Position numbers and translations under genes: made by a program. Below the pieces are notes generated by a model. The model was not told the DNA's origin, searched no databases, and worked only from the letters and a program-made list of their open reading frames with translations. 32,000 nucleotides of DNA, from contig JAIZWK010000001.1 of assembly GCA_021498095.1 (NCBI GenBank), positions 810,001 through 842,000 of the forward strand, written 5' to 3'. Below are positions 27,286 through 32,000 of this stretch, piece after piece. The stretch's first letter is position 1, and each line of letters starts with the position of its first letter. Source of the stretch: Candidatus Harpocratesius repetitus. GTDB lineage: Archaea; Asgardarchaeota; Lokiarchaeia; Sigyniarchaeales; Promethearchaeaceae.

Positions 27286-28233
27286 ATGAATAGATATTTA
27301 AATGTAAACCGGATAGAATTTGCAGTAACATACCTATGTAATGGAAAATGTAAGCATTGTTATACTACTAGGGATAAAGAAATGTTCCCAAATCATATTA
27401 ATGAATTCATTGCTCAAGAAATTGTTCGAAAAGTAGGTAAAAAACATCACCCAAGATCAATTATGACCTTTGGGGGAGAACCACTCTTATTTCCTGAAAT
27501 TGTTTTTAAAATCCATAAAGAAGCAATGAAAGTTGGCATCCTTCGTAGAGAAGTAATAACAAATGGCTATTGGGCAAATAATGATAAAAAAATTGAAGAA
27601 ATAGCCAAGGGTTTATTTGACTCTGGTGTGAATAATGTTATTATTTCTGTTGATGTATTTCATCAAGAACACATTCCCTTAAAATATGTTAGAAAAGCCG
27701 CTCAATCCTGTTTAAAAGCCGGTATTAAAGATATAGAATGGAATCCATGCTGGGTTATTGCTGAAAATGAGAATAATCGATATAATAAAAAAACTAAAAA
27801 AATTTTACAATCCCTTGAAGATCTTTCAATAAAAATATCATATGGAAATGTAATGCAACCCGATGGTTTTGCACTTTTAAATTTAAAGGAATTTTTACCA
27901 AAAAAAGAAAAAATTCCAACTGGTAAATGTGGAGATATCCCATATACAGATCCACTTGATTCAATACAATCAATATTTATTGAACCCGATGGAAAAGTTG
28001 CGGTCTGTAATGATTTTTATATAGGAAATGCAAGAAAGAGGGATGTTCTGAAGATTATTGAAGAGTATGATCCTTATAAAATCATAGAAATGAAATCTAT
28101 AATTGAAAACGGTATGATCGGATTAGCAGAATGGGCTAGAAAAAAGGGAATTGATCCAGATCCAAATGGATATTACTCCATTTGTCATATGTGTACAGAT
28201 ATTCGAAAAAAGGTGAAGAATATGAAATTATAA
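27286..28233 (+). CDS. Radical SAM protein with a C-terminal SPASM/Twitch-like Cys region, function unknown
   Basis: CNGKCKHC and FGGEP motifs; distal C...IEPDGKVAVC and CHMC; GAGG RBS. Confidence 0.9.
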   Translation: MNRYLNVNRIEFAVTYLCNGKCKHCYTTRDKEMFPNHINEFIAQEIVRKVGKKHHPRSIMTFGGEPLLFPEIVFKIHKEAMKVGILRREVITNGYWANNDKKIEEIAKGLFDSGVNNVIISVDVFHQEHIPLKYVRKAAQSCLKAGIKDIEWNPCWVIAENENNRYNKKTKKILQSLEDLSIKISYGNVMQPDGFALLNLKEFLPKKEKIPTGKCGDIPYTDPLDSIQSIFIEPDGKVAVCNDFYIGNARKRDVLKIIEEYDPYKIIEMKSIIENGMIGLAEWARKKGIDPDPNGYYSICHMCTDIRKKVKNMKL

Positions 28234-29188: not shown

Positions 29189-29644
29189 TTATTCATTTAT
29201 AATTTCAAAGACCATCTTATCAATAATCGGCTTTTTGGTCTCACGCTTATCGAAATACCAACCTAGTACGTTATCTGGAGTAATAATAATCATAACTCCA
29301 GTTGAGAGGTAATTTAAAATTTGCAAGTCCATATCATGCAAATCCTCTTTCCCGTCAGGGTGAGTGTGAAACTGCCATACGATATCAATCCCATCTTCTT
29401 CTTTATACTTTCGCATTTGGAACAATTTGCGTTTCTTCATCCGCATCCATGATTTTGGTTTTTCGTGAGCTTTTGCGGGATCTTTTGTAATTTCATAACC
29501 TTTTACTATTCCAAAGTTCTCTTTTCTGTCGGCAAATATCCAACCTGCTACAATTTTATTATTTTCAGCGTGACCTTGTTTTGCAAGATCAATTAATTCA
29601 TTAAAAATCGGTTCTGGAATTAAATAACGAAAATCGATGCTCAT
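29189..29644 (-). CDS. JAB/MPN (JAMM-like) domain protein with an atypical motif
   Basis: WQFHTHPDGKEDLHDMD (HxH...D) followed by MIIITP; 151 aa. Confidence 0.8.
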   Translation of the reverse strand: MSIDFRYLIPEPIFNELIDLAKQGHAENNKIVAGWIFADRKENFGIVKGYEITKDPAKAHEKPKSWMRMKKRKLFQMRKYKEEDGIDIVWQFHTHPDGKEDLHDMDLQILNYLSTGVMIIITPDNVLGWYFDKRETKKPIIDKMVFEIINE

Positions 29645-29759
29645 AATACTCTACCAGAAGCATTAACCTACCATAAAAATTAATTCTTACGGTTCTGAGT
29701 AACAATCAGATCAAAGGAAAAAAAAATAATTTCCATAATTATAGCACCGAATGATTCAA

Positions 29760-32000
29760 ATGAGTCGAAATATTTCTCAATCTTCTACTAAAATAACATC
29801 CCCTTTTTATTATTCATATCCTAAACCTGTTTGGGCTATGAAAAAGGAAGAATTATTGTCTTTTTTGCATACATATGCTGAATTAGGATTAACAGTTAAA
29901 AAAGTCGAAGAACGACTCATTAAGGAAGGAAAAAATGAACTCCCTCATCCAAAACCACATTTTTTAAGGGTCTATTTGGCTCCTTTATTCAATTGGCTCA
30001 TTATTATTTATCTTATTGCTGCTATTATTATGTTTATTTTCGGAATTGTTACTGGTGAGGGAAATATGACAATGATTTACACAACTTTGGCTATCGTTGG
30101 ATTGAATTCTATAGTTGCTGTTGTTCAACAAGCCAGAGCTGTTAAAAAATTAAAAGCTTTACGCGCTTTATCCGCTCCAACTTGTGTAGTAATACGTGAA
30201 GGGCAAAAAATGGATATTCCCACAACTGATGTTGTTCGAGGAGATATTCTAATTTTGGATACAGGTGCCAGAATTCCCGCTGATTGTCGTATTTTAGAAT
30301 CAAGCAATTTGCAAGTTAATGAAGCTTCATTAACAGGCGAAAGCGAACTTGTGGCGAAAAATCATGGTGAAGCTCTACTTAATTTATATAAACCTCGTCC
30401 TCTTTCTAATATTTCTCCAAAAGATTCTGAAATTTCTCCAAAAGATTCTAAAATGGTTCAAAGTTCTTTACCCTTACAAGCGCAATCCAATATTCTTTTC
30501 TTTGGGACTTATATTACCTCGGGGAATTGTCGTGCAGTGGTTTATGCAACCGGTGTTCATACAGAATTAGGGAAAATTTCCCATAAGTTAGAAGAGCAGG
30601 GTTTCCAAGAAATACCAATACAAGTAAAATTGAACCATATCGGTAAATGGTTTGGTATTGGAGTTATGACGTTTTGGGCAATTGTGTTGGGAATCATCTA
30701 TTTTACGACCGGACGGGTTGAAATTATCAAAAGTTTAAACTCTGCGATGGATATAATGCCTATCAATATTCCCCTTCTCACAACTATCGTAATGCTTTCT
30801 GGGACTCTTGCCATGGCCAATCAAGGAGTAATTGTTAGAAATCTCACATCTGTAGAAAGTTTAGGTAGGGTTAGTGTCGTTTGTAGCGATAAAACTGGGA
30901 CTTTAACTAAAGGAGAAATGTGTGTGCAACATATCTGGGCTCGAGGATCGCACTTTATGGTAACTGGTAGTGGATATAATCCTAAAGGAGATTTTTTTCT
31001 TACCGATAATCCGAAAAGACCCGAAAAGATCGAAAATATTCAAGAATATCCGCATTTACAATTATTACTAGCAAATTGCTTGTGGAATAATAATGCATCC
31101 GTTCAAATTCAAAATATTGAAATTGGAAAAAAGACCTCATCCAGATGGACGATAATTGGCACTCCAACAGAAGGAGCTTTAGCTACATTGATAAAAAAGG
31201 TAGGTGATCCAGCAGTTATTAATGATTTTTCAAATCCACCTGTTTCAGTGGTGCATGAATTTGGTTTTTCTTCTCAACTAAAACGCATGACAAAAATTTT
31301 ACAAACCACTGATAAATCCTACATCAGCTTTACAAAAGGTGCCAGTGAAGTCGTTTTATCCCTCTGTGATAGATTATTAGCCGAAGAAAATAGTGCAGTT
31401 CCATTTATTGATGAACTACGATTGGTTATTATGAATCGTATTAATATATTTGAAAGTCAAGGTTATAGAATACTTAGTTTTGCCTATAAAAGGTTTAACA
31501 ATCTTCCATCTGATGATTTGGATACACCTAAAATTAGAGAAGATATTGAGTCAAATTTAATATTTATTGGCTTTGTTGCAATTATGGATTCTCCACGTAA
31601 TGGAATAAAGGAAGCAATTCAATCTTGCTATAATGCTGGTGTTGATGTTGTTATGATCACTGGTGATAGTCTGCCAACAGCAAAGGCTATTGCTGCTCAA
31701 ATTGGAATGTCTGCTTTATCTCCTAATAATGTGCATTTGGGAGGTCTTGAATCAATATTTTCTGATACTAATAAAATACCAAATATTTCTCAAATTAAGG
31801 TTTTTGCTCGTGTTTCTCCTTTGAATAAGCAAGAAATTGTTGAAGCATATCATAAACATGATAAAATTGTGGCAATGACGGGTGATGGTGTTAATGATGC
31901 TTTGGCTTTACATGATGCTGATGTTGGTATTGCCATGGGGATTCAAGGAACGGATATTGCGAAAGAGGCAGCCGATATGATCCTTTCTGATGATAATTTC
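29760..32000 (+). CDS. P-type ATPase (P2-like scaffold), 3'-truncated by the window edge; absent from the ORF track
   Basis: Manually translated open frame from ATG 29760 to the window end: RIPAD, SLTGES, DKTGTLT (30888), TKGASE, MITGD, FARVSP, MTGDGVND. Helix M4 reads PINIP. Confidence 0.95.
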   Translation, partial: MSRNISQSSTKITSPFYYSYPKPVWAMKKEELLSFLHTYAELGLTVKKVEERLIKEGKNELPHPKPHFLRVYLAPLFNWLIIIYLIAAIIMFIFGIVTGEGNMTMIYTTLAIVGLNSIVAVVQQARAVKKLKALRALSAPTCVVIREGQKMDIPTTDVVRGDILILDTGARIPADCRILESSNLQVNEASLTGESELVAKNHGEALLNLYKPRPLSNISPKDSEISPKDSKMVQSSLPLQAQSNILFFGTYITSGNCRAVVYATGVHTELGKISHKLEEQGFQEIPIQVKLNHIGKWFGIGVMTFWAIVLGIIYFTTGRVEIIKSLNSAMDIMPINIPLLTTIVMLSGTLAMANQGVIVRNLTSVESLGRVSVVCSDKTGTLTKGEMCVQHIWARGSHFMVTGSGYNPKGDFFLTDNPKRPEKIENIQEYPHLQLLLANCLWNNNASVQIQNIEIGKKTSSRWTIIGTPTEGALATLIKKVGDPAVINDFSNPPVSVVHEFGFSSQLKRMTKILQTTDKSYISFTKGASEVVLSLCDRLLAEENSAVPFIDELRLVIMNRINIFESQGYRILSFAYKRFNNLPSDDLDTPKIREDIESNLIFIGFVAIMDSPRNGIKEAIQSCYNAGVDVVMITGDSLPTAKAIAAQIGMSALSPNNVHLGGLESIFSDTNKIPNISQIKVFARVSPLNKQEIVEAYHKHDKIVAMTGDGVNDALALHDADVGIAMGIQGTDIAKEAADMILSDDNF
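30411..30452 (+). repeat. 21-bp tandem duplication within the ATPase A-domain (ISPKDSE/ISPKDSK)
   Basis: ATTTCTCCAAAAGATTCTGAA followed by ATTTCTCCAAAAGATTCTAAA. Confidence 0.9.

Follow-up and report, generated by a model that had tools for sequence, protein, structure and literature searches.

Can a P-type ATPase that has lost the ion-binding glutamate of its fourth transmembrane helix (M4) still be a working pump, and if so, for which cargo? The question is raised by an open reading frame (ORF) at the end of a 32,000-nucleotide stretch of the Candidatus Harpocratesius repetitus genome (hereafter the window; contig JAIZWK010000001.1, G000:C1:810001-842000), which has a GC content of about 33% and comes from a genome assembled in a single contig of 4.36 Mb. 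An initial annotation of the window had read the M4 motif of this P2-like ATPase as PINIP, with an isoleucine at the position of the glutamate as in the eukaryotic P4 lipid flippases, and had proposed an active pump with a noncanonical, possibly lipid substrate that might inform the origins of P4 and P5 ATPases. The same annotation cautioned that the ORF encodes TGES rather than the P4-type DGET and that a sequencing error, or nesting within a known prokaryotic cation-pump clade, would overturn its proposal. From the complete gene and its relatives, we favor on balance a working P-type ATPase of a distinct, Asgard-centered sister clade to the prokaryotic P2A pumps, one that would move a small cation other than Ca2+.

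The M4 motif and the transport site

The residues around M4 (AMDIMPINIPLL) confirmed the motif and its spacing: P337 lies 43 residues ahead of the phosphorylated aspartate D380, and a HMMER alignment with the Listeria Ca2+-ATPase sets P337 opposite the proline and I338 opposite the glutamate of the PEALS motif of that pump. By alignment, I338 takes the place of SERCA E309 and N339 that of G310. In an AlphaFold2 (AF2) model of the whole protein (predicted local distance difference test score, pLDDT, 89; predicted template-modeling score, pTM, 0.86; 10 transmembrane helices; input alignment of 111 sequences), helices at residues 325-333 and 339-357 are separated by a break at 334-338, so M4 is unwound there. 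The catalytic motifs TGES, DKTGTLT, TGD, and GDGVND, described as intact, were all found, and a KGA motif was present beside them.

At the DNA level, a P-phi-N-phi-P motif (phi, hydrophobic residue) followed 43 residues on by DKTGT matched once in the window, against 0.00 matches expected from shuffles. The best relatives listed, 119 sequences that are 49 to 65% identical and come nearly all from Asgard metagenome-assembled genomes (MAGs), show such a motif with identical spacing in 118 cases, the remaining one having been missed by the DKTGT pattern used. Their motifs are PINIP (94), PLNIP (14), PINLP (5), and PVNIP (3), in a tally that also holds rows from the pump's own genome (PINIP 2, PINLP 1, PVNIP 1, PLNFP 1, and PEGLP 1). 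Across 122 aligned sequences, P337, N339, and P341 are 100% conserved, and position 338 is Ile, Leu, or Val. Since the motif recurs at the same spacing in 118 of 119 relatives and Asn339 is invariant in the 122, a sequencing error is excluded. Three residues ahead of the motif, Asp334 is kept in 95% of the 122 close relatives, yet not across the whole clade, and is thus a feature of the PINIP subclade. Asp463 of ATP13A2 was considered as its match and dropped, as it falls one residue off in the alignment of PPALP with PEGLP (PMC4033846).

The rest of the transport site lies past the window end. Of the M5, M6, and M8 acidic residues to which the initial annotation had pointed, those of M5 and M8 are kept and the M6 aspartate is replaced by an invariant histidine. 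We derived the SERCA equivalences via alignment to the canonical paralog P0006 and the Listeria pump. M5 retains its Asn (N778, SERCA N768, in 98% of the 122 close relatives) and its Glu (E781, SERCA E771, in 100%), and M8 its Glu (E920, equivalent to SERCA E908). M6 has S810 for N796, V813 for T799, and H814 for D800; S810 and H814 stand opposite the M6 Asn and Asp of the Listeria pump in the HMMER alignment, and the AF2 model shows M6 kinked at residue 815. H814, like N339, is found in 100% of the close relatives.

The same pattern extends to 62 diverse clade members, which have N339 in 95%, E781 in 100%, H814 in 98%, and E920 in 97% of cases; the clade-wide substitutions are E309 to Ile, Leu, Val, or Phe, N796 to Ser or Tyr, T799 to Leu or Val, and D800 to His. 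In one divergent member, P0158, N339, H814, and E920 are all replaced (by Ser, Phe, and Gln), and this joint loss suggests that the three residues act as a unit. M2 has changed as well: at one acidic position, presumably SERCA E109, the canonical clade has Glu in 100% and the variant clade Gln in 92% of cases, and at a second, near the outer end of the helix, Asp (90%) in the canonical clade gives way to Phe or Leu in the variant clade. These alignments indicate a coordinated rebuild in which the Ca2+ site-II ligands have been removed, the site-I residues N768, E771, and E908 kept, and a new Asn and His fixed. With two buried Glu plus a His, the set of Asn339, H814, E781, and E920 looks like a charged, ion-like site.

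Family placement and distribution

The pump is a member of the superfamily of P-type ATPases by profile (TIGR01494, 281 bits with a cut-off of 62.3; PF00122, 153.7 bits with a cut-off of 28.1) and carries the Pfam domains Cation_ATPase_N, E1-E2_ATPase, Cation_ATPase, and Hydrolase. NCBIfam profiles ranked the families P2A > P2D > P2B > P2C > P3A > P3B > P5, with P4 far behind, and all scores fell far below the subfamily cut-offs. The two P2A equivalog profiles gave 411 bits (PMR1-type, TIGR01522, cut-off 798.3) and 397 bits (SERCA-type, TIGR01116, cut-off 703.4), followed by P2D (366), PMCA (350), P2C (339), P3A (328; TIGR01647, cut-off 615.5), P3B (280), P5 (237; TIGR01657, cut-off 618), and P4 (109; TIGR01652, cut-off 431). 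The canonical paralog P0006 scored 714 and 702 bits with the PMR1- and SERCA-type profiles, and its P5 score of 258 is not exceeded by that of the PINIP pump.

Structural comparison gave the same picture. Structure-based identity was 27 to 30% with P2A, P2C, and P2D pumps, 22 to 23% with P3 (P3A 22%), 20% with P5, and 15 to 19% with P4, and the top Foldseek matches in PDB and Swiss-Prot were solely P2A, P2C, and P2D pumps. Only the percent identity was used from this comparison because whole-model structural Z scores, at 20 to 32 for every P-type family and varying with conformational state, do not separate the families.

A search of a 50%-identity library of 1.8 billion cluster representatives returned about 40 clusters (886 to about 450 bits) with P-phi-N-phi-P and the M6 His, after which the motifs changed abruptly to PEGLP and NLVTD. 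In trees rooted on the P1B pump of the same genome, the variants were monophyletic, with a Shimodaira-Hasegawa-like approximate likelihood ratio test (SH-aLRT) value of 94 in a 112-row tree and ultrafast bootstrap (UFBoot)/SH-aLRT values of 100/99 in a 61-row tree. The canonical PEGLP group formed one clade in the 61-row tree (98/95), two Asgard P3A pumps fell outside both, and the PINIP pump was not nested among the canonical prokaryotic P2A sequences sampled. These trees show a clade of single origin and make the pump, as far as they sample, a member of a separate sister clade to the canonical prokaryotic P2A pumps. Nesting in a known cation-pump clade therefore holds only in that the lineage is P2A-like. 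The clade as we propose to define it is monophyletic and has M4 P-[ILVFW]-N-[ILF]-[PVI] 43 residues ahead of DKTGT, together with an M6 His, an M5 Glu, and an M8 Glu; the PINIP pump shows all of these.

Prokaryotic P2A pumps (Listeria LMCA1 and B. subtilis YloB, of the SERCA/SPCA type) are the best sequence, profile, and fold matches. They share with the PINIP pump the topology of 10 transmembrane helices, TGES, the Cation_ATPase_N domain, the M5 NxxE, including the Asn and Glu ligands, and the M8 Glu; they differ in having the Glu of PEGL(P) where the latter has P-I-N-I-P, the Asn, Thr, and Asp ligands of M6 (N..T-D) where it has S..V-H, and the M2 acidic residues that it has lost. Published M4 signatures are PEGLP for P2, PISL for P4, and PPELP or PPALP for P5 pumps (PMC4033846). 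The comparison with flippases is weakened because a hydrophobic residue at the E309 position is normal in proton pumps: Asgard P3A pumps read PVALP at the same 43-residue spacing, so the isoleucine is not specific to flippases. P3A pumps (AHA2, Pma1, and those of Asgard archaea) have in common with the clade this hydrophobic position within P-x-x-x-P as well as TGES, but they have an M6 Asp and an M5 Arg and no M5 or M8 Glu, whereas the clade, including the PINIP pump, has the M6 His and two Glu and lacks the Asp acceptor and the Arg. Another prokaryotic P2-like family, P6 (mycobacterial CtpE), is set apart by an M6 Asp-to-Ile change and altered transport (PMC10654040). CtpE is bacterial and keeps PEGL in M4; the Asgard clade is altered in the two helices M4 and M6, where Asn and His have become fixed.

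Transport-site signatures define the subfamilies of P-type ATPases, and a new subfamily is a rarity. P6/CtpE is the sole family added since 1998, with more predicted in prokaryotes (PMC10654040). We found the signature seen here (M4 Asn, M6 His, M5 and M8 Glu kept) in no described family, and the clade would, judging by its sequences, be a subfamily derived from P2A whose transport site has been rebuilt. We found no description of it in the literature on Asgard and archaeal P-type ATPases; the FUPA families of Chan et al. 2010 lay outside this comparison, so a TCDB FUPA assignment is possible.

The Harpocratesius genome encodes four variant pumps, namely the one described here (P0002, PINIP), P0003 (PVNIP), P0004 (PINLP), and P0005 (PLNFP), along with the canonical pump P0006 (PEGLP, NxxE, NLVTD, and M8 Glu) and a sixth P-type ATPase, the P1B pump, of CPC type. 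Most archaea carry only one to three P-type ATPases (2014 genome survey, PMC3896382). At E <= 1e-100, 122 of the 151 sampled genomes of the phylum gave a match, a threshold that also lets in canonical P2A pumps. Most families of the phylum have matches scoring higher than about 450 bits, the score down to which the cluster search still showed the signature. Of the Asgard genomes searched, most contain the clade, often in two to five copies, and head-to-tail pump pairs, often directly adjacent, occur in many genomes of the phylum.

PINIP-type homologs, for which the initial annotation had suggested a search, are numerous, with more than 100 carrying P-[I/L/V/F]-N-[I/L/F]-P. Among Asgard archaea in culture, Promethearchaeum syntrophicum MK-D1 has a clade member of PFNFP type (L071) and Lokiarchaeum ossiferum one of PINIP type (L012, L108). 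A motif scan covering one genome per prokaryotic species found at least 119 loci and at least 133 ORFs among the matches listed, all of them P-type ATPases and most with the M6 His at the expected place. Labels among these were Promethearchaeota (57), Thorarchaeota (15), Heimdallarchaeota (8), Hodarchaeota (8), Hermodarchaeota (4), and Odinarchaeota (1), with 20 archaea without a phylum label, including an Atabeyarchaeia genome and isolates named Hermod. The non-Asgard labels listed were Nitrososphaeria (2), Bathyarchaeota (2), Methanomethylicus (1), and one contig of an "Aerophobetes bacterium," which may be misbinned because its accession prefix is the same as that of two listed Asgard MAGs. 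The distribution thus appears Asgard-centered, and the labels of some MAGs place the clade in a few TACK archaea as well. On a "Korarchaeota" contig (JABAHQ010001742.1), a gene for an Arf/Ras/Roc-type small GTPase (L029:10548-11129) has a clade member close by; this could reflect a wrong bin label or an Asgard origin of the contig.

P3A H+-ATPases above the TIGR01647 cut-off were found in 26 of the 151 Asgard genomes sampled, and in none of the genus Harpocratesius. These pumps, with TIGR01647 scores above 1000 bits (as at L026 and L027 in genomes G041 and G058), are sometimes in tandem, and they coexist with the P-phi-N-phi-P clade.

Candidate cargo and rival explanations

If the pump moves a small cation other than Ca2+, it would follow the usual E1/E2 phosphoenzyme cycle and bind one such ion in a pocket of Glu781 and Asn778 (M5), Glu920 (M8), His814 (M6), and Asn339 (M4), gated by the hydrophobic M4 residue in the manner of P3A proton pumps. 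A noncanonical substrate is likely because the transport site is unlike those of the Ca2+, Na+, and K+ P2 pumps; in this respect the initial annotation stands, the pump being intact and under constraint, and the analogy with flippases is what lacks support. One candidate cargo is a divalent transition metal (Mn, Fe, Co, Ni, or Zn), for which two carboxylates, an imidazole, and amides would make a typical site, His being a typical Zn ligand (PMC4033846). Another is H+, with a His/Glu pair in place of the P3A Asp/Arg pair. P3A pumps use an M6 Asp as proton acceptor together with an M5 Arg, and by analogy with this mechanism H+ could be carried by a lone titratable residue in the place of D800 (PMC10654040).

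Several points weigh against a small-cation pump of this kind. That the five site residues cluster is presumed from their homology to the SERCA sites, and the clade has no characterized member. The trees were built from sequences other than those of eukaryotic P2B, P2C, P2D, P4, and P5 pumps, so the position of the clade relative to the eukaryotic families rests on profile scores. A pure H+ pump would not need E920, N778, and N339 to be kept, and bona fide P3A pumps coexist with the clade in some Asgard genomes. In the neighborhoods examined (eight clade-bearing contigs of other genomes and the regions of the four variant pumps of the Harpocratesius genome), no metal-sensing regulator, chaperone, or metal-binding domain was consistently linked to clade genes. 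Moreover, loss of the M2 acidic residues and a hydrophobic gate would also be compatible with uptake in the phosphorylated E2 state (E2P) only, as in P4 and P5B pumps.

An alternative we judge unlikely is a convergent P4- or P5B-like transporter that would be phosphorylated without cytoplasmic cargo, bind a bulky polar cargo from outside in E2P (the head group of a lipid, or an organic cation, for example a basic amino acid or a polyamine), and use the hydrophobic M4 residue as its gate. Like the P4 pumps Drs2, ATP8A1, and Neo1, the PINIP pump has an Ile at the M4 gate and no acidic residue in the motif, with Ile, Leu, Val, or Phe at this position in the clade; its M2 acidic residues are gone; and the PINIP subclade has a polar to acidic outer half of M4 (S328, N330, S331, and D334) and an M5 and M6 rich in aromatics. 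P5B pumps such as ATP13A2 share with it the missing M4 Glu and the acidic and aromatic residues near the site, and an organic cation taken up on the E2P side, as may occur in P5B, is a speculative possibility here. A VTT/DedA gene (PF09335) lies between tandem clade pumps on two other Asgard contigs, GNAT acetyltransferases lie downstream on three contigs, and the Lokiarchaeia gene adjoins a lysine-fermentation cluster and an M1-family aminopeptidase. However, two invariant buried Glu plus a His make an ion-type site, and P4 pumps are not known to have buried carboxylates. The conserved M5 Lys of P4 pumps has no counterpart here. The A domain carries TGES and not DGET, and of the 118 relatives scored, 116 likewise have TGES or SGES; PINIP has Asn for the Ser of PISL and, like the P2 and P3 motifs, a second Pro that PISL lacks; and P4 is the most distant family by both profile score and structural identity. 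CDC50 (PF03381), a beta subunit to be expected for P4A and P4C pumps, which P4A pumps need and P4B pumps do without, gave no match in this 93.6%-complete genome, in a search where control genomes were equally silent and which thus had no positive control. P5 pumps have extra N-terminal helices, and their PP(E/A)LP motif is not that of the PINIP pump. The link with VTT genes is confined to a subset; many tandem pairs are directly adjacent, this genome's four variant pumps have no VTT neighbor, and the neighborhoods may reflect inherited gene order among related genomes. We give less credence still to an Asgard-wide pump family for a non-metal cargo (for instance a polyamine or another organic cation, or the head group of an archaeal lipid) with a hydrophobic M4 gate and E2P uptake, possibly acting with VTT/DedA-type proteins; if real, it would be a prokaryotic functional counterpart of the eukaryotic P4 and P5B pumps, not their ancestor. 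P4 pumps are confined to eukaryotes (PMC10654040). The low P4 and P5 profile scores and identities, together with TGES, argue against any relationship of the PINIP pump to P4 or P5 ATPases, and on present evidence the clade has no bearing on the origin of those pumps, contrary to what had been proposed.

Lower again we place the idea that the protein is still a pump for Ca2+, or for Ca2+ and Mg2+, in which N778, E781, E920, and water would form a site-I-like pocket and His814 would act as a tethered positive charge. Its nearest relatives are Ca2+-ATPases, it keeps three of the five site-I side chains, it bears the database label "Ca2+-transporting ATPase," and pumps with a single Ca2+ site exist (SPCA, PMCA, and Listeria LMCA1). 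These one-site pumps, however, keep site II (M4 Glu, M6 Asn/Asp). Ca2+ is unlikely because those are the residues lost here and because the genome already has the canonical paralog P0006 with every Ca2+ ligand; in addition, Ca2+-activated phosphorylation of SERCA needs E309, as seen in E309 mutants, and every subfamily profile score is far under its cut-off. We regard as very improbable a nontransporting or decaying paralog that has lost transport and has a regulatory role or none. The canonical ion ligands are absent and the genome has four paralogs, but the reading frames are full length, the catalytic motifs are invariant, the replacement residues N339 and H814 are invariant among relatives only 35 to 65% identical, and the clade has been kept across the phylum.

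A pump for a small cation other than Ca2+ would touch on current annotation. Clade members are labeled "Ca2+-transporting ATPase" or "cation-translocating" in databases, and a transportome survey took Asgard orthologs of a putative P2-type Ca2+-ATPase as evidence of Ca2+ signaling (PMC7997004). Knowing the cargo would close a gap in what is understood of Asgard membrane physiology and reveal in what way the scaffold of a Ca2+ pump can be retuned.

Gene features and genomic neighborhood

Table 1. Coordinates of the PINIP pump, its motifs and site residues, and neighboring genes. Plain numbers are window positions; prefixed numbers refer to the genome or to loci.
Feature	Position	Strand	Remark
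P-type ATPase ORF, first 750 codons of 1016	29751..32000	+	open at window end
Complete pump gene P0002, 1016 aa	G000:C1:839751-842801 = L001:1501-4551		801 nt beyond window end
TGES, A-domain dephosphorylation motif	30333..30344	+	P2/P3 type, not P4 DGET
21-nt tandem repeat, 2.4 copies, 90% matches	30404..30454	+	encodes ISPKDSE/ISPKDSK
Asp334	30750..30752	+	three residues ahead of M4 Pro; SERCA A305 position
M4 motif PINIP	30759..30773	+	
P337	30759-30761		M4
I338	30762-30764		M4
N339	30765-30767		M4
P341	30771-30773		M4
DKTGTLT phosphorylation motif	30888..30908	+	D380 at 30888-30890; columns invariant in relatives' alignment
TGD, P domain	31659..31667	+	
GDGVND hinge motif	31881..31898	+	
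N778	L001:3832-3834		past window
E781	L001:3841-3843		past window
H814	L001:3940-3942		past window
E920	L001:4258-4260		past window
Lysine-fermentation cluster	20429-26889	+	kamA, 347-aa ORF, MutS_V-like, kamD, kamE; upstream of pump
Lysine 2,3-aminomutase (kamA)	20429-21718	+	
347-aa ORF	21752-22795	+	
MutS-domain-V protein	22814-24412	+	
D-lysine 5,6-aminomutase alpha (kamD)	24513-26099	+	
D-lysine 5,6-aminomutase B12-binding beta subunit (kamE)	26083-26889	+	
Radical-SAM/SPASM protein	27286-28233	+	between lysine cluster and pump
Small JAB/MPN-like protein, HxH...D motif	29189-29644	-	Prok-JAB, below Pfam cut-off; between lysine cluster and pump
76-aa ORF	L001:4679-4909	-	convergent with pump, just past window end; no Pfam match; not hydrophobic
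Two clade pumps flanking VTT/DedA (PF09335)	L010:872-7892, L011:1108-7901		PINLP/PFNLP type upstream, PINIP/PLNIP type downstream; then GNAT

The tandem repeat within the pump gene lies inside an insert of about 40 aa in the A-domain loop, where the model has a pLDDT of 53 to 56. The JAB-like gene is divergent from the pump across a spacer of 106 nt, and the M1-family aminopeptidase follows downstream, beyond the small ORF. The order kamDE, pump, M1-family aminopeptidase was also found in two other Lokiarchaeia (L009 and, in Lokiarchaeum ossiferum, L012), where unannotated ORFs of similar size and the same orientation occupy the place of the small ORF (80 aa in L009 and 75 aa in L012). This order may be inherited and offers no clear functional lead. 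Across the lineages whose neighborhoods were examined, no partner or regulator was common; solely lineage-specific gene order recurred, with the kamDE-pump-peptidase order in Lokiarchaeia and, elsewhere, pumps in tandem, some accompanied by VTT or GNAT genes. On one contig (L032), the gene between the paired pumps encodes a C_GCAxxG_C_C protein instead. In the Harpocratesius genome itself, 330 nt downstream of the PVNIP paralog P0003, a 457-aa ORF (L013:8333-9706) matches the presenilin family in its C-terminal part (PF01080, 70.8 bits).

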